Shown here piece by piece: positions 19,262-51,380 of a stretch of 64,000 nucleotides of DNA. Position 1 is the first letter of the stretch. Each line of letters opens with the position of its first letter. The stretch is from Candidatus Enterousia sp. (GTDB lineage Bacteria; Pseudomonadota; Alphaproteobacteria; Rs-D84): contig JAZRSO010000031.1 in assembly GCA_045651525.1 (NCBI GenBank), positions 3,219-67,218 of the forward strand, given 5' to 3'. Both the position numbers and the translations under genes were made by a program. The notes beneath the pieces were generated by a model. The model was given only the letters and a program-made list of their open reading frames with translations, did no database searches and was not told the origin of the DNA.

Positions 19262-21670
19262 GTGGCATATATGGCAACACTGACACTTGGAAAATCTGTA
19301 ACAACTGACGCTGTTCGCAGCAAAAAGGGAGATTCCGTTTTTGTTGAACGACGTCGTCGTGTTATCGCACCTGACAGCAAGGAATTGCGTGACGAACCAA
19401 AGGCGCCTGTGGCACAAAAAAATGCCGCAGATGAAAAACTGCGTGCAGTGTTGGCCGCCGCCAAGGCACGTGAAGAAGAACGTAAAAAGCGCGAGGCCGA
19501 AGAAGAAGCCGCACGTGCTGCACGCGCTGCTGAAATCGAACGCGAAAACCGCGAATACGAAAAAGTAAAATCGCAATTAGCGGCACGCGAAACAACACCA
19601 CAGGCATCAGAACCTGCCGAAGAAGCGCCACAAACACGTTCTAAACCTGCACCACAGCAAAAAGTATTTACAAATAACGCTGTTGCTGGGGGCGCGCGTA
19701 AAAATCGTGATAATGACGATGAAGAACGCGGGAATAAGTTTAATAACTCTAAAAAAGACTTTAAGAAGTCTGGCAAAATTCATCTGCGCGACATTGTTAT
19801 CGGTGATGGCGATGACGAGGATGAAATCGGTTTGCGTGGCACAAATCGCCGCCGCTCCGAAGCGTCATTAAAACGTTTCCGCGAAAAAGCACGCGCGGTA
19901 TTTTCTGCCCCACAAAAAGTAGAACGCGTTGTCACATTGGGCGATACAATTACTGTCAAAGATCTGGCTGCTGCAATGGCAGAAAAAGCAGGTAATGTTA
20001 TCAAAAAACTGATGGAAATGGGTATGATGGTATCTGTAAATCAGTCTATTGATGCAGATACAGCAGAACTTATCGCTGGGGAATTTGGTGCAACTGTTAA
20101 ACGCGTTGATGTAAAACCATATGCAGAAATCTTGGAACGTGAACCAAACCCAGAAAACATGACGCCACGCGCGCCTGTTGTTACGGTTGTGGGACACGTT
20201 GACCATGGTAAGACATCACTGTTGGACGCATTCCGTAACGCAAATGTTGCCGCAGGCGAAGCTGGCGGTATTACCCAGCACGTTTCTTCGTACGAAGTTA
20301 AAACACAAACAGGTCCAATGATTACTTTCTTGGACACACCTGGTCACGAAACATTTACTGCTATGCGCGCACGTGGTGCCCAGATGGCAGATATCGTTGT
20401 GTTGGTTGTGGCTGCAAACGATTCAATTATGCCACAGACAATCGAAGCAATAAATCATATTCGCGCGGCCAAGGTTCCATTTATCGTTGCAATCAATAAA
20501 ATTGACCTGCCCGAAGCGAATCCAATGCGCGTAAAAACAGACTTGTTACAACAAGAAGTTCAGGTCGAAGAAATGGGTGGCGATGTTCAATGCGTTGAAA
20601 TTTCTGCAACCAAGAAAATCGGACTGGACAAACTGGAAGAAGCAATCTTGTTACAGGCAGAAATGATGGAATTAAAGGCAGACGCAGAAATGCCAGCTGT
20701 TGCATACGTGGTCGAAGCAAAACAAGAAAAAGGTTTGGGTTCTGTCGCAACTGTCTTGATGCGTCAAGGAACATTGAAAATTGGCGACGTGTTCGTTGTT
20801 GGCGAAACATTTGGTCGTGTTCGTGGCTTGATAAATTCAAACGGCGAACGCGTAAAATCTGTACGTCCTGGTCAGCCTGCAATTGTACTGGGGTTGGACT
20901 CGGTTCCGGGCGCAGGCGATGAACTGCGCGTTATGGAAACAGACGCACAGGCACGCGAAGTTGCTGCATACCGCGCACAAAAGTCCAAAGACAAGGCAAA
21001 CGCAGTTAAACGTTCCAGTTTGGAAGAACTGTTCGCCAAACGTGATGATAACAAAAAACTGATATTGCCAATTATATTGCGTGCAGACGTACAGGGTTCT
21101 GTTGAGGCAATTTCTGACATGGTCAAAGAAATCAATACTGACAAGGTTGGTGTTGAAATACTGTCGTCTGGCGTGGGACAAATCACCGAAGGCGACATCC
21201 GTCTGGCGACTGCATCTGGTGCGATTATTATCGCGTTTAATGTTCGTGCAGATTCTGTGGTTCGCGATATGGCACGTGCAGGTGGCGTTGATATCAGATA
21301 TCACAATGTTGTATATCGTATCACAGACGAAATCAAAGAAATCTTGTCTGGTAAATTGGCACCAGAAAAACGCGAAACATTTATCGGATACGCAGATGTC
21401 ATTGCCCTGTTCACAGTTGGCAAGGGTATCCGCGTTGCAGGTTGCCGTATGACCGAAGGCACCATCAAGAAAGACGCATTTGTGCGACTGTTGCGTAACA
21501 ATGTTGTTATATACGATGGTAAAATCGGACAACTGCGCCGCGAAAAGAACGAAGTCAAAGAAGTTTCTGGTGGTGTTGAATTCGGTATGTCTTTTGATAA
21601 GTATAACGACCTAAAAGAAGGCGACCGGGTCGAATGTTACGAAGTTGAAGAAGTTCGTGCAGAAATCTAA
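19262..21670 (+). CDS. infB: translation initiation factor IF-2
   Basis: G domain [24 protein letters not shown]. Start is either GTG 19262 or ATG 19271. Confidence 0.95.
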
Positions 21671-43581: not shown

Positions 43582-45660
43582 ATGACATACGATGAAATAA
43601 GAAAAGTATTTTTAAATTATTTTGAATCGCGCGGGCATAAAATTGTGCCATCTGCGTCCTTGATTCCAAACGACCCAACACTGTTATTTACTGTGGCGGG
43701 CATGGTTCCATGGAAGGGTATTTTACAAGGCACAGAACCTGCGTTCGCACCACGTGTTGCAGACGTTCAAAAATGTATTCGCGCAGGCGGTAAACATAAC
43801 GACTTGGAAGACGTCGGCTTTGACGGCCGCCATCACACGTTCTTTGAAATGCTGGGCAACTGGTCTTTTGGCGATTACTTTAAAGAAGGCGCAATTGAAA
43901 TGTCCTGGGAAGTTTTGACCAAGGTCATCGGTCTGGACCCAAATCGCATTGTTGTTACAACGCATTACAGCGACGAAGAAGCAATTAAAATCTGGAAGAA
44001 AGTTGCTGGCAAAGATGCTATTTTACTGGGCGACAAAGATAACTGGTGGTCTGCGGGCGATACAGGTCCATGTGGCCCATGTACAGAAATGCACTATGAC
44101 CTGGGCGAAGATATGCCAGGCGGTCTGCCAGGCACACCAGACGAAGACGGCGGACGCTTTGTTGAAATCTGGAACGATGTATTTATGCAGTACGACAGGG
44201 ACGCAAACGGTAATTTAACACCACTGCCAAAACAAAATGTCGATACAGGCGCGGGCTTGGAACGCTGGGCATCAATTTTACAAGGCAAGACAGATAACTA
44301 TGACACTGATTTGTTCCAAAGCATTATGAGTGCAACAGAAAGCATTGTCGGCACACAACGCAATGCTGATAACATTTCCAGCTTTAAGGTTATTGCCGAC
44401 CATCTGCGCTGTGTTGGTTTTGCAATCGCAGACGGTGTTATTCCATCAAACACAGACCGTGGCTATGTAATTCGCAGAATATTACGTCGCGCAATGCGTC
44501 ATGGGCAAATCTTGGGTCATCGTGGGGCGCTGTTATCAAAACTGTACCCTGCCCTGATTACTGAAATGGGTGCGGCATATCCAGAACTGGAACGCGAAGA
44601 AAAACGTGTTGTTGAAATCATTCAAAACGAAGAAAACGCATTCGCAGATATGTTGCAAAACGGTATGAAATTGTTGGAAAGCGAATTACCAAAACTGAAC
44701 AACAATGTTCTGCCAGGCGATGTTGCGTTTAAACTGTTTGATACATATGGCTTCCCATTGGATTTAACACAAATGATTTTGCGCGACAAAAACATTGATG
44801 TTGATGTTGCTGGATTTGAAAAATCAATGGCAGAACAAAAAGAACGTTCCCGTGCAAATACCAAGGGAACACGCATATTCTGGGAATCACAAACAGATTT
44901 GCAAAATACGGACGATGTGGCGAAATACGCACCAGTTGATATGGAATCGCGCGTATTGTCAATTCTGCGTAACGGCGAATTCGTAGAATCCGCAGATTCT
45001 GGGGACGAAGTCGAAGTTGCACTGGATAAAACAAACTTTTACGGCACCCAGGGCGGTCAGACTGGCGACAGCGGCGAATTAAAGATTGATGGCAAAACCG
45101 TCATGACCGTGGCCGAGGCTGGACGTGTTGACAATGTCGTTATTCACAAGGGCGTATTAAATGAAAAACTGTCTGTGGGCGACGTGGTTACCCCTGTCAT
45201 AAACACAAATGTACGTCAGCAAACTGCACGCGCGCATACGGCGACACACTTGTTACAGGCGGCGTTACGTGCGGTACTGAACGAAGACGTGCAACAACGC
45301 GGATCCAAGGTTGCACCTGATTCCGTTCGATTTGACTTTTCATTTGGTCGTGCGATGACCACAGATGAAAAACAGGCTGTTGAAGACTTGATAAACCAAT
45401 GGATTGCGGCAGATATGACCGTTACACACGAAGAAATGTCCATGGATGACGCGGTTAAACGTGGCGCGATGGCACTGTTTGGCGAAAAATACGGCGATAT
45501 GGTTCGTGTTATTACTGCGGGCGATGTTTCATGCGAATTGTGTGGCGGAACACATATACACCACACAGGCGAGATATTAAAGGCACGCATAAACAAAGAA
45601 AAATCTATCAGCAGTGGTATCAGACGAATAACAATGTCTGTTGGAACACTGGCCGAATAA
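43582..45660 (+). CDS. alaS: alanine--tRNA ligase, short form lacking the C-Ala domain
   Basis: Class II catalytic core and editing-domain motifs HTATHLL and CGGTHI. Ends at ..SSGIRRITMSVGTLAE (692 aa). Confidence 0.92.
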   Translation: MTYDEIRKVFLNYFESRGHKIVPSASLIPNDPTLLFTVAGMVPWKGILQGTEPAFAPRVADVQKCIRAGGKHNDLEDVGFDGRHHTFFEMLGNWSFGDYFKEGAIEMSWEVLTKVIGLDPNRIVVTTHYSDEEAIKIWKKVAGKDAILLGDKDNWWSAGDTGPCGPCTEMHYDLGEDMPGGLPGTPDEDGGRFVEIWNDVFMQYDRDANGNLTPLPKQNVDTGAGLERWASILQGKTDNYDTDLFQSIMSATESIVGTQRNADNISSFKVIADHLRCVGFAIADGVIPSNTDRGYVIRRILRRAMRHGQILGHRGALLSKLYPALITEMGAAYPELEREEKRVVEIIQNEENAFADMLQNGMKLLESELPKLNNNVLPGDVAFKLFDTYGFPLDLTQMILRDKNIDVDVAGFEKSMAEQKERSRANTKGTRIFWESQTDLQNTDDVAKYAPVDMESRVLSILRNGEFVESADSGDEVEVALDKTNFYGTQGGQTGDSGELKIDGKTVMTVAEAGRVDNVVIHKGVLNEKLSVGDVVTPVINTNVRQQTARAHTATHLLQAALRAVLNEDVQQRGSKVAPDSVRFDFSFGRAMTTDEKQAVEDLINQWIAADMTVTHEEMSMDDAVKRGAMALFGEKYGDMVRVITAGDVSCELCGGTHIHHTGEILKARINKEKSISSGIRRITMSVGTLAE

Positions 45661-45740
45661 ACCAAAACCGCCGTTTGGCGGTTTTATTTTACCTGGGTCC
45701 TGGGGTCATCCGCCCAAGGCGGGAATCCAATGCGCCGCAA

Positions 45741-46085
45741 ACAGTTAAACCCACCCCGTCACTGCGTGACACCCCTCCCCGCGGGGTGCGGAACGCACCG
45801 GCGTCGGAGGGGAACTTGTCACCGGTTTTAAGTTCTCCTCCCTGGGAGGAGTACGGCGTAGCCGGGAGGTGGGTATGACAATGTTTTTTATTTTCCTTGT
45901 CACGCCTATCGAAGACAGTTAAACCCACCCCGTCACTGCGTGACACCCCTCCCCGCGGGGTGCGGAACGCACCAGCGTCGGAGGGGAACATGTCACCGGT
46001 TTTAAGTTCTCCTCCCTGGGAGGAGTACGGCGCAGCCGGGAGGTGGGTATGACAATGTTTTTTGTTTTCCTTGTCACGCCTATCG
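45741..46085 (+). repeat. two tandem copies of a 174-bp GC-rich palindromic element (R1)
   Basis: Unit starts at 45741 and 45915. There are nested hairpins (gtcac/gtgac, cccctcc/ggagggg, ggtgcg/cgcacc, ctcctcc/ggaggag) enclosed by cccacc../..ggtggg. Confidence 0.9.
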
Positions 46086-46091
46086 CTCATC

Positions 46092-46197
46092 TTTGTCACT
46101 CCTGCGTAGGCAGGAGTGGGACCGTGCAGTGTGAGCGTAGCGAGCCAAAATAACACATATTACACATGTTTGAATATTGTAAATTTCATAGACCCTA
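46092..46197 (+). repeat. about 106-bp repeat R2, copy 1
   Basis: gtcactcctgcgtaggcaggagtggga..gtgagcgtagcgagccaaaataa..tttgaatattgtaaatttcatagaccctat. Second copy at 48674..48780. Confidence 0.9.
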
Positions 46198-46286
46198 TCC
46201 CTGCCTTCGCAGGGATGACAAAAAACTATGCTAGGCGTGACAAAATACACATTCGCTAGGCGTGACAATTGTGTTTCTTCGGTATT

Positions 46287-46850
46287 TTATTCCGCAACCT
46301 GTACCGTATCGTCATATACAGAATAGACAGTTCCCTTGTAACGTATTTTCAGCTTTTTATCTGTATCTTTGTTCATTGGCACATCGGCTGTGGTTATATT
46401 ACCAAACAAATCAGCCACACCGTCATGATTGGTATCAAAATGCAATGCAGGACTGGTGCGTTTCACAGGACTTAGATACATAATATCTTTGTCCACGTGC
46501 AGTTTTGCACCACTGCATTGTGAAACTTCCCACATACCGGTTGGGGCAGACGCACCATCTGGGCATGCGTTTATACCAACATCATCTGTTTCAGAATATG
46601 TATATTCGCCACCAGGGCAGAAATGATTTGCCGGACATATTACACATGTTTCAGATGTCCGTGGCAAATAATACCCACGTTCACAGGTGTAATTGGACGC
46701 CTCGAACACTGCGACAAATTGCATTGTGCCACTGGGGATAATATTGCACATTTTCGGCACAGTTTGTGTACCAATTGGCACAACAACATCAGCCAAGGCG
46801 ACGCTTGGCATAAAAATCATCAGCAATAACGCAATTTTCGATATAAACAT
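46287..46850 (-). CDS. secreted Cys-rich protein (shares its N-terminal module with the upstream gene)
   Basis: Signal peptide MFISKIALLLMIFMPSVALA. YTCERGYYLPRTSETCVICPANHFCPGGEY..ACPDG. Confidence 0.75.
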   Translation of the reverse strand: MFISKIALLLMIFMPSVALADVVVPIGTQTVPKMCNIIPSGTMQFVAVFEASNYTCERGYYLPRTSETCVICPANHFCPGGEYTYSETDDVGINACPDGASAPTGMWEVSQCSGAKLHVDKDIMYLSPVKRTSPALHFDTNHDGVADLFGNITTADVPMNKDTDKKLKIRYKGTVYSVYDDTVQVAE

Positions 46851-46900
46851 TTAATGTATCACGTATTCTGTGGGGAAAATCCCCACAGAATCACGATTTA

Positions 46901-48373
46901 TTATTGTGTTATCAGTTTCCAACCCTTGAATGTATAACCCGGTTTTGTTGGGATGTAATCAGGTACATTTACATCGCTACCATACAAACACATTCCAGAG
47001 ATATTTTCAGAACCATCATCAGGATTCCAATCAATACCTATCTTGTTCGCATCGCACATATATGTGATATAGGCGCTATGTGAATTAATATATGTTCCAA
47101 TAAGAATCGCTGCGTTCTTGAGCTCTAATACAAAATTTGTCAAATCATTCTTAGCAGCAACATACATCAAAAAAACATTTAAGCTAGAGATTGCTGAATC
47201 GTGTGCACAGCCTGTGTTACAGGCTTCCATATCTCCATCAAAATTTATATCACTGCCTTCATGTCGTATATCAAGATCTGACATAGGTGTATCATTAACA
47301 TTTGTGTACGTGGTATAGCACATATGTGCCTCGTCCGATGCGTCACATTCGGATTTACCGGATATACTGATTTCCCACCGTGGACTAAATATGAACCAAT
47401 CTCCATTTTGTGCTGATTCACGAAACGCCGCCAATTCAGGACTTTGCTGTGCAGCAATATCGCAATCTATCTTTTCTCCTGCTAAGCTCGATAAAAGAAA
47501 ATTAGCAGTGCGTATATATTCTGCCTGTTGACAAGTTTCTTTCCCGAAACCATCCTTGCTATATAAATAGCCATCGCTTGGCAATTGATTAACATTTTCA
47601 TCAACAAAAGCCTGAGCAAGTGTTTCGAATGGTTGCCAAAAGCCATTCATTCGTTCTGGATGCTGTACATTGTCAATAGCAACTTTAACTTGTAATTGTA
47701 CTTCATTTGAAAACGAATTATAAATCGATTCCCAATTATTATACAGCTCTGACTTTGCTTCTTCCAGCATTTCTGGGGTATAGTCTTCTGCGCTTCCGCC
47801 ATTTACATTAACCAATACTTGTACCAGTTGTTCATCTGTTAAATCTGGGCGTTTGTGATAGCCCGTATCGCATTGAAAGCTTAATGAACATATTGGTGAC
47901 GTGGCATCGCACGAACCGCCATAAAAATGTTTACCAGACGCTGTTTCATTACCGTGGGTAACGTTTATTGCGTGTAACGGTACAGGCTGTTGTGTACATG
48001 TCGCAGAACATCCCTGGTAACAATCGTTTTGACTGTCAGAACCACCAACTGATGATGCATAATCAGTGGGGCATTGGTATGTGCCTTTTTCTTCGCTTTC
48101 AACTGTAAAAATACCACCTGGACAGTATGAGCCACTGGCACATGGGGTACATGCAATGTTTTCACCGTCAACCATTAAATATTGACCCGCCGGACAGTCA
48201 TATTCATTCAATGACCATGTCGCAATAGTGTTCGCAGTTGCACCATTTTCTGCTGTACCCAAAACATCTGCGTTACAAGTGCCGGCGCCACCTGTAATGA
48301 TTTCATCGTCTGCATACGCAGTGCCGATAACACCAATTGCAAACATTGTGTATAAAATATTCTGTAATCGCAT
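46901..48373 (-). CDS. secreted Cys-rich protein with a C-terminal Listeria-Bacteroides-type repeat
   Basis: Start ATG 48373 (SD AAAGGAA) gives signal peptide MRLQNILYTMFAIGVIGTAYA. YDCPAGQYLMVDGENIACTPCASGSYCPGG. C-terminus CLYGSDVNVPDYIPTKPGYTFKGWKL. Confidence 0.8.
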   Translation of the reverse strand: MRLQNILYTMFAIGVIGTAYADDEIITGGAGTCNADVLGTAENGATANTIATWSLNEYDCPAGQYLMVDGENIACTPCASGSYCPGGIFTVESEEKGTYQCPTDYASSVGGSDSQNDCYQGCSATCTQQPVPLHAINVTHGNETASGKHFYGGSCDATSPICSLSFQCDTGYHKRPDLTDEQLVQVLVNVNGGSAEDYTPEMLEEAKSELYNNWESIYNSFSNEVQLQVKVAIDNVQHPERMNGFWQPFETLAQAFVDENVNQLPSDGYLYSKDGFGKETCQQAEYIRTANFLLSSLAGEKIDCDIAAQQSPELAAFRESAQNGDWFIFSPRWEISISGKSECDASDEAHMCYTTYTNVNDTPMSDLDIRHEGSDINFDGDMEACNTGCAHDSAISSLNVFLMYVAAKNDLTNFVLELKNAAILIGTYINSHSAYITYMCDANKIGIDWNPDDGSENISGMCLYGSDVNVPDYIPTKPGYTFKGWKLITQ

Positions 48374-48397
48374 ATTCCTTTCCTTTCGTTTTTTTGT

Positions 48398-48440
48398 AAA
48401 AAAAACAGACCAATGACGCCATTTATGCGTCATTGGTCTG
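48398..48440 (-). terminator. intrinsic terminator hairpin inside the 5' leader of the 46901..48373 gene
   Basis: Minus strand: cagaccaatgacgc-ataaatg-gcgtcattggtctg (14-bp perfect stem) + T8, ending 24 nt before the ATG. Confidence 0.65.
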
Positions 48441-48493
48441 TTACCAAACGCGAACATACGTTCGCGTAAATTTTACCCGGCAGGGTTATTCCC

Positions 48494-48513
48494 CTCTCTC
48501 TCTCTCTCTCTCT
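48494..48513. repeat. dinucleotide microsatellite (CT)10, which is (AG)10 on the gene strand
   Basis: ctctctctctctctctctct, about 120 nt upstream of ATG 48373. Confidence 0.97.
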
Positions 48514-48673
48514 AGATTTCTGCACTTTTTGAACATTGTGTCAGCCCCACCGTTGTTTTATTTATTTCCTGTATAAAAATTGTACTATTTTATGGGAATT
48601 TAAATCAACTGTTTTTTGTTACCGGTAAGAAAATATTGTCATTCCTGCGTCCCCTTTGTCATTCCTGCCCCCT

Positions 48674-48780
48674 TTTGCCACTCCTGCGAAGGCAGGAGTG
48701 GGACTATACAGTGTGAGCGTAGCGAGCCAAAATAATACATATTACACACGTTTGAATATTGTAAATTTCATAGACCCTAT
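48674..48780 (+). repeat. repeat R2, copy 2
   Basis: Same orientation as 46092..46197, with a few substitutions. Confidence 0.9.
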
Positions 48781-48853
48781 TCGCTTCGCGGCACTTCGTA
48801 GTCCTGCCTGCGCAGCAATGACAAAGAAGAAAGTAGGAATGACAAGAAAAAAC

Positions 48854-49122
48854 AAACCCACCCCGTCACTGCGTGACACCCCTCCCCGCGGGGTGCGAAA
48901 CGCACCGGCGTCAGAGGGGAACTTGTACACAGGTTTTAAGTTCTCCTCCCTGGGAGGAGTACGGCGCAGCCGGGAGGTGGGTATGACAGAGTTTTTTTGT
49001 TTTCCTTGTCACGCCTATCGAAGACAGTTAAACCCACCCCGTCACTGCGTGGCACCCCTCCCCGCGGGGTGAGGGACGCACCGGCGTCGGAGGGGGACTT
49101 GTCACCCGGTTTAAGTTCTCCT
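48854..49122 (+). repeat. R1 copies 3 (full) and 4 (truncated)
   Basis: aaacccaccccgtcactgcgtgacacccctccccgcgggg.. recurs at 48854 and 49030. Copy 4 stops after ..ggtttaagttctcct. Confidence 0.9.
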
Positions 49123-49258
49123 GCCTGCGCTAGGCGTTACAAAACGTGCCTACGAAATGTCGTAAAAAAAATCCCCATTTCGGTTTTTTTACACAGAATA
49201 AACCGTTGACAATCTGTGTATTTGTGCTACAACAATATCAGAAAAAAAGGATACCATT

Positions 49259-49873
49259 ATGCCACGATATACCGAAGCGTATAAAATTTCTGTATTAAAA
49301 CGCACAAAAGTCGTAGGGGTAAGCGCTGCGTCCAAGGAAAAAAACCTGCCGATGAAGACTATTCTGCGTTGGAACTATATTTATCACATTTATCACAAAA
49401 TGGAATTGCGCACCTTTACAGATGAAGAAAAAATCAAAATTTTAAAGTATGCTAATAAATACGGTATGACATCCGCAATGCGTAAGTATAACGTTGATGT
49501 GGCAACCCAACGCGTGTGGAATAAAAAATTTAATATCTATAAAAAAACTGGCAGACGTACAAAAGCAACCTACAAGAAAAAATATAAACATTACAACACT
49601 GAATACAAAATGGAAGTGTTGTTGTTTACAAAACAATATGGTATCAGCAAGGCTGGTCGTAAATATAATCTGCCGGCATCTACGATAAAGTCGTGGAATG
49701 CCGAATTAAAAGTTTACACACCACGCAAACACCGCACTTTTACCGACAGCAAAAAAGCAGAAATCATCCAATTCGCCACAGAAAATTCTGTGGCACAGGC
49801 TGCAAAAAAATACAACCTGGGCAGCGGGTACATCAATAATTGGATAAAAGATTTAACACAAAATAAAAAATAA
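49259..49873 (+). CDS. protein made of four tandem transposase-OrfA/Psq-type HTH modules, with no catalytic domain
   Basis: Four repeats of about 45-50 aa: (Y/F)T.E.K..(I/V)L......G.S.A.RKYN(L/V)...T...WN. Examples are FTDEEKIKILKYANKYGMTSAMRKYNVDVATQRVWN and YNTEYKMEVLLFTKQYGISKAGRKYNLPASTIKSWN. Confidence 0.7.
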   Translation: MPRYTEAYKISVLKRTKVVGVSAASKEKNLPMKTILRWNYIYHIYHKMELRTFTDEEKIKILKYANKYGMTSAMRKYNVDVATQRVWNKKFNIYKKTGRRTKATYKKKYKHYNTEYKMEVLLFTKQYGISKAGRKYNLPASTIKSWNAELKVYTPRKHRTFTDSKKAEIIQFATENSVAQAAKKYNLGSGYINNWIKDLTQNKK

Positions 49874-49894
49874 AAATCCCCGTTTGGGGATTTT

Positions 49895-50641
49895 TTATTT
49901 CAAATAAAATGTTATCGTGGCGACAACACGAACCTTTTTATTTATCGCCTGACGTTCATTGGATGACCAGCTGTCGGTTGGGTCACGCGATTCGATACTG
50001 AACACACCCTGATTCGCACTTTTAATTTTGCCCAGTTTGGCATCTGCGTCTTTGGCAAATTGCTGACCCGCGGCGGTGGCGTTTTTGGTTGCCTGCTCTA
50101 TCATCGATATTTTGATATCGTTCAGGCCGTTAAAGATATAAATTGGGCCGGAATAATCTTCGGTAATGGTAATGCCACGACGAACCAATTCGCCCATACG
50201 ACGGGAAACACTGTCCACCAATTCAACATTATGCGAACGAACCATTACACCTGTTTCAATCACATAGCGACCGTCATTTTGCTGATTCTTTAATTCTGCA
50301 TCGGAATAGCCTGCATATTTATCGCGAACCTGAACACGTAAATTCTGAATATCTGATGGCGCAAAACCAGAATCTGTTAAGAATTTATGAATTTCTGCCA
50401 AATCGTTATCAATTTCTTGTTGCAAGACAGTTAAATCACCACCAACACCATTGATTTTTATGTTCCATACGGCCGTATCTGCGACAACGTCGCGTTCGGC
50501 CAAACCCTTGACCGTGACAGTGCGCCCAGACATCGCGCGATAAATGCCGTCGCCAATAAAAAATCCACCCAGTGCAACACCAACCGCCAGCACAGACAGC
50601 CACAATCCAGAAACCGATTTTAATTTATTTGTAATCTTCAT
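49895..50641 (-). CDS. SIMPL (DUF541) domain protein
   Basis: TM anchor, TVTVKGLAERDVVADTAVWNI, C-terminal VRVVATITFYLK. Start ATG 50641 with SD GGGGGG. Confidence 0.7.
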   Translation of the reverse strand: MKITNKLKSVSGLWLSVLAVGVALGGFFIGDGIYRAMSGRTVTVKGLAERDVVADTAVWNIKINGVGGDLTVLQQEIDNDLAEIHKFLTDSGFAPSDIQNLRVQVRDKYAGYSDAELKNQQNDGRYVIETGVMVRSHNVELVDSVSRRMGELVRRGITITEDYSGPIYIFNGLNDIKISMIEQATKNATAAGQQFAKDADAKLGKIKSANQGVFSIESRDPTDSWSSNERQAINKKVRVVATITFYLK

Positions 50642-50699
50642 AAATCCCCCCAATGTTTTATATAGCTAAATTTACATTAATCGTGCGACGATATCAAGA

Positions 50700-51380
50700 C
50701 TAAATATCTTGGATTATTTTGCCAATCACATAATTCGCCAAATTCAGACCAAAACAACCCGTTACTGTTATCACAGACCCCAGATTCTTGGCGTGTCCGG
50801 TTACAGGTTGCGGAACCTGTGTTGAATAAACAACCGGAATGTCTGGCAAATCTAAATCACGCACCATACGACGAACACGCGCAGCCAATGGGCATACACT
50901 TGTCTTGGACAATGGCGCGATTTTTATTTGCGATATATCTGTTTTTGACGCTGCCCCCATACTGGAAATAATCGGCACATTGTGCGCGTGCGCCCATTTG
51001 TATAACGCAACCTTGGATTCCACAGTATCAATCGCATCAATTATAAAGTCTGGCATAACATCAATTTGGGACGCATCGTCAAAAAACATATTTAACGCAG
51101 TCACATGAATTTCTGGATTTATGTCATAAATACGATTTTTCGCGACAGATACCTTGGGCTGACCAACTGTACTGTCCAGTGCAAACAGCTGGCGATTTAT
51201 GTTTGATTCTTCAACCGTATCAAAATCAACAACAATCAAATGACCAATGCCGGAACGGGCCAGTGCCTCTATTGCAAAGGAACCAACAGCACCGCACCCC
51301 ACAACCATAACTGTTGCGGTTTGTAATTTCTGGGTGCCGTCGTCGCCAAATAATAACCTTGTTCTGTGTAATCGTGTCAT
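50700..51380 (-). CDS. tcdA: tRNA threonylcarbamoyladenosine dehydratase (ThiF/HesA family, TcdA-like)
   Basis: VMVVGCGAVGSFAIEALARSGIGHLIVVDFDTVEESNINRQ. Confidence 0.75.
   Translation of the reverse strand: MTRLHRTRLLFGDDGTQKLQTATVMVVGCGAVGSFAIEALARSGIGHLIVVDFDTVEESNINRQLFALDSTVGQPKVSVAKNRIYDINPEIHVTALNMFFDDASQIDVMPDFIIDAIDTVESKVALYKWAHAHNVPIISSMGAASKTDISQIKIAPLSKTSVCPLAARVRRMVRDLDLPDIPVVYSTQVPQPVTGHAKNLGSVITVTGCFGLNLANYVIGKIIQDI

Follow-up and report, generated by a model that had tools for sequence, protein, structure and literature searches.

Downstream of alaS, in the genome of a Candidatus Enterousia species, a GC-rich palindromic unit, here called R1, is repeated within a few kilobases. 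What kind of repeat is it, and which enzyme, if any, could have multiplied it? For several groups of palindromic repeats, among them the RPEs of Rickettsia, the NIMEs of Neisseria and many REP-like families, the lack of a known mobilising enzyme has long been a loose end. In this work, we are describing R1 in the window (the whole 64,000-nt stretch of DNA that was analysed), its family in the genome and in the genus, and the relation of its arms to genes of the DUF559 nuclease family in many bacterial phyla. Window positions correspond to C31:3219-67218 of the source genome, G000, an assembly of 1.05 Mb in 39 contigs with 39.8% GC.

Copies of R1 in the window and their architecture

Tandem Repeats Finder reported 45741-46085 as 2.0 copies of a period of 174, with 97% matches. 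A covariance model built from the copies of the genome scored 159.5 bits at 45747-45876, 154.4 at 45921-46050, 153.5 at 48854-48984 and 65.6 at 49030-49137, where the copy is truncated. All four matches are on the + strand, which agrees with the earlier note, where copies had been placed at 45741, 45915, 48854 and 49030 (truncated) in one orientation. The 174-bp unit given there holds as the tandem period; the unit of the family is shorter, a core of about 128 nt (45747-45874 in the first copy) that runs in all copies from AAACCCACCCCG to CGGGAGGTGGGT. The remaining 46-nt tail, ending in TTGTCACGCCTA, is a separate module present only in part of the copies. Coordinates of the features are collected in Table 1.

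Table 1. Features of the R1 locus and related positions (window numbering)
Feature	Position	Strand	Description
queA of G000	1843-2853 (C31:5061-6071)	-	both insert sites empty
Intrinsic terminator of alaS	45664-45685	+	5' of the R1 array
Degenerate dRS3-like palindrome TCATCCGCCCAAGGCGGGAATCCAAT	45708-45733	.	just 5' of copy a
R1 copy a, conserved core	45747-45874	+	arm A, spacer, arm B
Arm A of copy a	45749-45817	+	ACCCACCCCG, hairpin GTCAC-TGC-GTGAC, CCCCTCC[nested hairpin]GGAGGGG, AACTT
Spacer of copy a	45818-45829	+	12 nt
Arm B of copy a	45830-45874	+	AAGTT, CTCCTCC-CTG-GGAGGAG, hairpin CGGCGTAGCCG, GGAGGTGGGT
Tail module of copy a	45875-45914	+	ATGACA..T-run..TTGTCACGCCTA..; in some genome copies only
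R1 copy b, core	45921-46050	+	in tandem with copy a, 97% identity
R2 repeat, first copy	46092-46198	+	between 44-nt inverted arms including TTGTCACGCCTA half-sites
Two TAGGCGTGACAA half-sites	46232-46268	-	TTGTCA(C/T)(G/T)CC palindrome family
R2 repeat, second copy	48674-48780	+	93% identical to the first
R1 copy c, core	48854-48984	+	covariance-model match
R1 copy d	49030-49126	+	arm A and start of arm B, then truncated

R1 has the build of a two-fold quasi-palindrome, an inverted doublet made of arm A, a 12-nt spacer and arm B, and each arm consists of two hairpins. Arm A reads ACCCACCCCG, a small hairpin, CCCCTCC..GGAGGGG and AACTT, and arm B reads AAGTT, CTCCTCC..GGAGGAG, a small hairpin and CGGGAGGTGGGT. 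Arm B approximates the reverse complement of arm A, which is why the covariance model gives about 60 bits on the opposite strand as well. The hairpins described earlier are all present, with one correction: ggtgcg-gaa-cgcacc is nested within cccctcc..ggagggg and does not stand alongside it.

The RNA fold of the core has -72.1 kcal/mol (z = -4.55), and folds of the opposite strand or with DNA parameters give nearly equal z. All 18 full copies retain the outer stem ACCCACC-CCG / CGG-GA-GGTGGGT. Small hairpins in this genome vary by replacement of the whole stem and by compensated changes, e.g. GTCACTGCGTGAC vs GTCCGCTTCGCGGCC, and GG..CC turned into CC..GG in the copy on contig C9. Among relatives in the genus the outer stems are changed on both sides jointly, e.g. 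AACCCTCCCTCCC..GGGGGAGGGTT. When 55 elements of the genus, taken from about 17 genomes, are compared in an alignment fitted to the model and made of related sequences, 92% of cells are paired vs 74% in 500 shuffles (maximum 76%), and double changes, affecting both sides, occur in 42 of the 46 pairs.

Such a fold (z = -4.5) with covarying pairs, together with an excess of G-U (107) over A-C (38) cells in the model alignment, would suit a repeat acting as RNA, be it a small structured RNA, a stabiliser of 3'-UTRs, or a terminator or insulator. However, this excess of G-U is biased, because the model picks the strand, and the two strands of R1 fold equally well. No Rfam match was obtained at E <= 1 in window 44000-51000, no promoter-like or terminator-like sites were found in or at the R1 copies, and the own terminator of alaS (45664-45685) ends that gene before copy a. 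Both orientations of R1 are seen relative to the upstream gene, and its orientation varies relative to the DUF559 gene described below as well. Moreover, the sequence of the CCCCTCC/GGAGGGG stem is itself kept in different phyla, as one would expect if a protein recognises it, and not from a need for pairing alone. The proposal of a family of structured small RNAs is therefore unsupported, and a role of R1 as RNA seems to us very improbable.

The 12-mer TTGTCACGCCTA occurs as had been reported, at 45897, 46071 and 49006 (+), at 46232 and 46257 (-), and with one mismatch at 49131 (-), in total six matches vs 0.2 expected. Its reading as MITE-like 12-bp termini does not hold. R1 does not end at these sites, which belong, as half-sites, to another palindrome family, TTGTCA(C/T)(G/T)CC, with 67 members in the genome. 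They mark the borders of modules, enclosing R2 at the first locus and the truncated R1 at the second.

A dispersed family in mosaic intergenic arrays

BLASTN and iterated nhmmer searches of the 1.05-Mb assembly gave 32 non-overlapping R1 copies on 18 contigs, a number to be taken as at least, many copies lying at contig ends. The earlier description of four copies at two loci is thus right for the window and not for the family. In about six places the left half stands alone, and 31 of the 32 copies are intergenic. Their flanks hold the dRS3-like GTCATTCCCGCGaagGCGGGAATCC, TTGTCA(C/T)(G/T)CC half-sites, a GCCCCTGCCCCC..GGGGCGGGG hairpin and R2, so that the arrays are mosaics of repeats, NIME-like in build. 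Elsewhere in the genome, intact versions of the palindrome that is degenerate at the window locus stand before R1 copies. The strict dRS3 consensus ATTCCCN8GGGAAT was found 10 times in G000 vs 0 expected, and some of these sites adjoin R1 copies. Those sites include C1:23824, C18:12661, C29:774, C35:6861 and six more; the context is GTCATTCCCGCG(A/C)AGGCGGGAAT or its reverse complement, often with CCA after it.

No target-site duplication or common direct repeat was evident in the flanks of the 32 copies. Near-identical copies have long flanks in common, and this is easier to reconcile with segmental duplication or recombination than with transposition of single units. With respect to GC skew, 12 loci are oriented opposite and 6 the same, a difference that is not significant.

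A plain local segmental duplication, involving neither a family nor a mechanism, would account for the presence of R1 and R2 in one order at the window loci. It is refuted by the 32 copies on 18 contigs and by diverged relatives in 17 other genomes of the genus, and the same architecture recurs in other phyla; we give this explanation next to no credence.

In the window, the orders R1-R1-R2 and R2-R1-R1', in direct orientation, stand on either side of a 2.6-kb pair of Cys-rich genes. A (CT)10 tract at 48494-48513, a possible slippage site, lies in the upstream region of the gene for a 518-aa Cys-rich secreted protein. Another neighbour, 130 nt 3' of the truncated R1 (49259-49873, +), encodes a 204-aa protein with only transposase-type HTH repeats (HTH_28, HTH_Tnp_1, HTH_23, CENP-B_N, HTH_psq) and no catalytic domain; it was rejected as a partner of R1, being single in the genome and adjoining no other R1 copy. 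When 29 species of the genus are compared, nearly each has a different gene after alaS (window 45661 onward). In G063 that place is taken by a homologue of G000 C31:69405-70439, which in G000 is found about 20 kb further on. As to strain-level relatives, neither AlaS nor the HTH protein had a match in look-ups for identical proteins, and the best hit of a metagenome scan had 88% identity.

Diverged relatives of R1 were detected with the R1 model in 18 of the 61 genomes of the genus, G000 included. The model gave no match in the species nearest by AlaS identity, and outside the genus none in the 16 genomes that represented other genera of the order.

These data allow a reading after the NIME hypothesis set out in PMC1797815. 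The arrays would be recombination cassettes kept by the host, with R1 as the "RS" unit, used for exchange of the genes of Cys-rich surface proteins, and the link with a nuclease presented below would be a matter of history. The mosaic of R1, R2 and short palindromes, the direct order of units around the Cys-rich pair, the excess of dRS3 sites, some of them beside R1, and the variable gene order 3' of alaS all agree with it. A family missing in the nearest relatives and patchy in the genus (18/61 genomes) is not, however, what a maintained host function predicts, and the arms are common to a nuclease element across phyla. We consider this reading unlikely as the explanation of R1; an exchange role of the NIME type may nevertheless exist as a side effect, and as such is compatible with the nuclease reading.

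Arms of R1 around DUF559 nuclease genes

For REP-like repeats the partner to look for is RAYT (PF01797, Y1_Tnp). Neither G000 nor any R1-rich genome has a member of this family, G044 being the only positive of the 61 genomes of the genus, and control genomes gave matches in the same search. No RAYT partner for R1 was thus found.

A search of the genus with PF04480 (DUF559) gave two score classes, type I with at least 100 bits and type II with 86-98 bits. An R1-model match lay within 300 nt of 10 of the 16 type II genes vs none of the 21 type I genes. A type II gene is present in 11 of the 18 R1-positive vs 1 of the 43 R1-negative genomes (Fisher p = 8e-7), with G045 as the exception, which has 35 R1-model matches and no DUF559 gene. 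Read by eye, the type II genes are arranged as arm B, gene, arm A (B-gene-A) or as a variant of it; in some, one arm is missing (no downstream arm A in G000 C9, G065 and G014). The inner ends of the arms, ..GGGGTGGT vs ..GGGAGGGTT, change with the nuclease subtype. In subtype IIa the arms end with ..CGGGGTGGT / AACCACCCCG.. and in subtype IIb with ..GGGGAGGGTT / AACCCTCCCCG.., CCCCTCC-N3-GGAGGGG being kept in both. The arms of R1 and of the nuclease element are thus homologous, arms and nuclease gene travel together, and the arm ends co-vary with the nuclease subtype, in addition to the phyletic association.

Two type I genes of G000 (C20:500-1260 and C32:54505-55265) each lie between direct copies of R3, a GC-rich structured repeat of about 166 nt that is distinct from R1. 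The hairpin at the end of R3, CCCGCCCC..GGGGCAGG, is a module found after several R1 copies.

The partner protein scores 94 bits against DUF559 (PF04480; cut-off 20.6) and aligns to PDB 3hrl with E = 4e-16, keeping GNYIVDF..E.D..H of the D..ExD..H core, for which a catalytic role is presumed by analogy with Vsr. The nearest solved structure is this 3hrl, an uncharacterised DUF559 protein of Neisseria gonorrhoeae. With dRS3 present in G000, this is a hint at a possible link between DUF559 nucleases and NIME arrays in Neisseria also. A survey of PD-(D/E)XK enzymes grouped DUF559 with Vsr and the intron homing endonuclease I-Bth0305I.

Rickettsia palindromic elements can be inserted in frame in genes, and the earlier note had raised the same for R1. 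One copy, on G000 C9, is indeed in frame within a gene, and it comes with a nuclease domain. R1 (21118-21246) and the DUF559 domain (21282-21596) form a 474-nt insert in a gene of about 199 codons with an HhH motif, and this insert is open throughout in the host frame, which runs over 431 codons from stop to stop. R1 directly precedes the nuclease there, the sole intact cognate copy of it in G000, and belongs to the most divergent full-length copies of the genome (76.6% identity to copy a over 128 nt). The HhH-motif gene is uninterrupted in 43 of 46 relatives. This conserved gene of about 199 aa (with the insert, G000 C9:20943-22031) has the HhH-like motif LPHIGKITANHLARNLG and was seen in 45 of the 46 genomes of the genus, yet no Pfam family matched it at E <= 0.01. 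In G006 (C9:51300-52600) and G044, the codon of the G000 insert carries a short in-frame remnant, which suggests that in-frame deletion removes the nuclease; the G006 remnant, ..HPSVHSTAEIKSAKS.., is similar to the tail of the insert in G000.

In the genus, each of the nine subtype IIa copies is in frame within a host gene or abuts the host stop. One of them is the copy in the HhH-motif gene of G000. In queA two sites are used. The first, after SRMLVV, is filled in G021, G042 and G057 and empty in G000, G007 and G012; the second, after RTLESA(A/H), is filled in G057, G007 and G012 and empty in G000, G021 and G042. The empty alleles have no arms, hence the arms arrive with the gene. Directly 3' of the uvrB stop, IIa copies are present in G065 (ATGA overlap) and G014. 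In G065 (C13, locus position about 1477) the frame of R1-like sequence and DUF559 starts in the ATGA overlap with the uvrB stop, which makes translational coupling likely; both frames end with LLVE. Solo doublets sampled in the genus are intergenic, and within genes only nuclease-linked copies were seen.

An intein was rejected, as no Hint domain is present and the junctions read VV|QSSPP and GGEL|TLS; in Pfam searches of the QueA insert only Queuosine_synth and DUF559 passed the cut-off, with MTES_1575 and EABR weak and sub-threshold. An intron or a known RNA family was rejected too, because no Rfam intron match was returned for four insert-bearing loci. With neither Hint domain nor intron, the insert is most simply translated. 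The arms then read as ..SSPPLEGCPQGGVV.. and ..NHPGTSCHPSTGGEL.., and in-frame insertion would turn the GC-rich arms into Pro/Gly-rich stretches that look like linkers.

The same arrangement extends beyond the genus. A protein search with the B+D+A region (arm B, DUF559, arm A) of the QueA insert, in targets of 344-1095 aa, yielded 250 clusters, and QueA with DUF559 accounts for most of the best 120 of these 250. Other hosts of the insert are HsdS, DNA methyltransferases, HsdR, QueH, TsaD, KsgA, RecO and a protein with the AP-endonuclease-2 fold, and the flanking peptides are the same in all these host proteins (best 120 of 250 clusters). At the DNA level, hsdS of Desulfurispirillum indicum has the order B-D-A-spacer-B'-B, with arms of like sequence pattern.

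Species genomes were searched with the exact arm pattern CCACCCCG-N8-22-CCCCTCC-NNN-GGAGGGGAA, in which 24 bases are fixed, so that about 0.06 chance matches are expected. At least 120 stretches in many phyla match it. Among the matches listed are Cyanobacteria, Bacillota, Bacteroidota, Patescibacteria, Chloroflexota, Verrucomicrobiota, Planctomycetota, Fibrobacterota, Chlorobiota, Actinomycetota and all proteobacterial classes, including a Rickettsiales MAG. The 80 loci examined contain nine DUF559 genes, all within 100 nt of an arm, and of 111 arms, 24 are within long open frames. Doublets of the A-spacer-B type that have no gene and share the layout of R1 occur in a cyanobacterium (with a perfect 42-bp hairpin), in Tannerella, in Thiotrichales and in Nevskiaceae.

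What R1 may be and what may copy it

The best reading of these results is that R1 is a local gene-less doublet, the autonomous form of which, found across phyla, consists of arm B, a DUF559 gene and arm A. We lean towards regarding R1 as a non-coding, non-autonomous foldback repeat, a gene-less derivative of a DUF559 nuclease element which was amplified into intergenic arrays.

In the mechanism that we propose, R1 modules in the order B-gene-A would be the inverted ends of a small selfish element, the sole gene of which would encode a DUF559 (Vsr-like, PD-(D/E)XK) endonuclease. The nuclease might bind the CCCCTCC-N3-GGAGGGG palindrome, or extruded hairpins, and cut there, and repair of the break would copy the element in a homing-like manner. 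Gene-less doublets could be multiplied in trans, as REPINs are by RAYTs, only by a different enzyme. The four copies in the window would then be such gene-less derivatives, from which tandem duplication and recombination may have produced the mosaic intergenic array. The most plausible side effect is that the copies would act as recombination substrates flanking the variable pair of genes for Cys-rich secreted proteins.

Copying of R1 driven by the nuclease is what we infer from sequence comparison, and several observations count against it. Target-site duplications are missing from the flanks of the 32 copies, G045 combines 35 R1-model matches with the lack of a DUF559 gene, the nuclease-adjacent R1 on C9 is one of the most divergent full-length copies in G000, and the order A-B of R1 is the reverse of that in B-gene-A. 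Also, the copies that are most similar have long common flanks, and recent spread may be largely due to segmental duplication or recombination.

The earlier note was right in kind when it spoke of a REP/RPE/MITE-type repeat, as R1 is dispersed, mostly extragenic, palindromic and non-coding. It is of the REP/REPIN/RPE/NIME kind and probably a member of none of these families, with a new candidate partner enzyme. As in REPs and REPINs, the modules are short, GC-rich, palindromic, mostly extragenic and numerous, and as in REPINs the unit that looks mobile is an inverted doublet folding into one long hairpin. The gene of the associated enzyme is bracketed by inverted modules, as that of RAYT is, and the sequence of the module shifts with the enzyme subtype, as in REP-RAYT systems. 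Unlike in those, RAYT is lacking here and the bracketed gene encodes a DUF559 / Vsr-like PD-(D/E)XK nuclease. R1 modules are also longer than REPs, with two hairpins each, the nuclease-bearing form of the arms sits in frame within genes, and R1 does not have the strand bias expected for single-strand Y1 transposition.

With RPEs it shares the palindromic build, a size of about 100-150 nt, a reduced alphaproteobacterial genome as the host and the ability to sit in frame within protein-coding genes without breaking them. In contrast to RPEs, the only copies found within genes in the genus are those joined to the nuclease gene. We know of no transposase for RPEs, and a report of a nuclease partner for them was not found in the literature consulted.

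NIMEs resemble the R1 arrays in being intergenic mosaics of 50-150-nt units with short inverted-repeat borders, placed beside genes of variable surface proteins, and the dRS3 consensus ATTCCCN8GGGAAT itself occurs 10 times in G000. The half-site borders of R1 modules are comparable to the dRS3 borders of RS units in the NIMEs of Neisseria. Here, however, the host is not Neisseria (proteins of relatives are labelled as Alphaproteobacteria MAGs), and R1 in the window is bordered by TTGTCACGCCTA half-sites, with only one degenerate dRS3 (45708-45733). Unlike RS units, for which such an origin is not known, R1 probably has a cross-phylum, nuclease-linked origin. At the time of PMC1797815, NIMEs had not been seen outside Neisseria.

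Genes of Vsr-like (EDxHD) homing endonucleases, e.g. I-Bth0305I, likewise fill the same precise site of a conserved gene in some lineages and leave it empty in others, and depend on expression of the host gene. The present element differs from the I-Bth0305I type in having neither an intron (Rfam) nor an intein (Hint), the insert staying in frame, and in its palindromic arms and gene-less derivatives. MITEs such as the Correia elements are also small, numerous and non-coding, with terminal inverted repeats. For R1, the flanks showed no target-site duplication and a search among Y1 transposases gave no parent IS; its candidate parent carries a nuclease, not a transposase.

DUF559 is hardly treated in the literature that we found. 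A paper from 2007 left unexplained the "fusions" of DUF559 and GIY-YIG to a SPOUT methyltransferase. In the literature searched, we met with no earlier account that describes the arms or the in-frame inserts, or that connects DUF559 with palindromic repeats. Insertions of the kind described here would account for annotated DUF559 "fusions" to QueA, HsdS, TsaD, KsgA and RecO, which are probably insertions of a selfish element and not functional fusions. More tentatively, and with some doubt prevailing, we suggest that arm-DUF559-arm may be an unrecognised pan-bacterial selfish element, which spreads a nuclease domain in frame, with palindromic ends that double as Pro/Gly-rich linkers in any frame, and which sheds gene-less hairpin doublets such as R1 into intergenic DNA.

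A repeat of the R1 type can be tied to the almost unstudied nuclease family DUF559 by architecture, by filled and empty sites and by co-occurrence across phyla, and this tie makes the question of its mobilisation directly testable. If the proposal is true, those RPE-, REP- and NIME-like repeats in which RAYT is lacking would have an enzyme. The dRS3/NIME arrays of Neisseria may be among them, because the nearest solved structure is a DUF559 protein of Neisseria gonorrhoeae.
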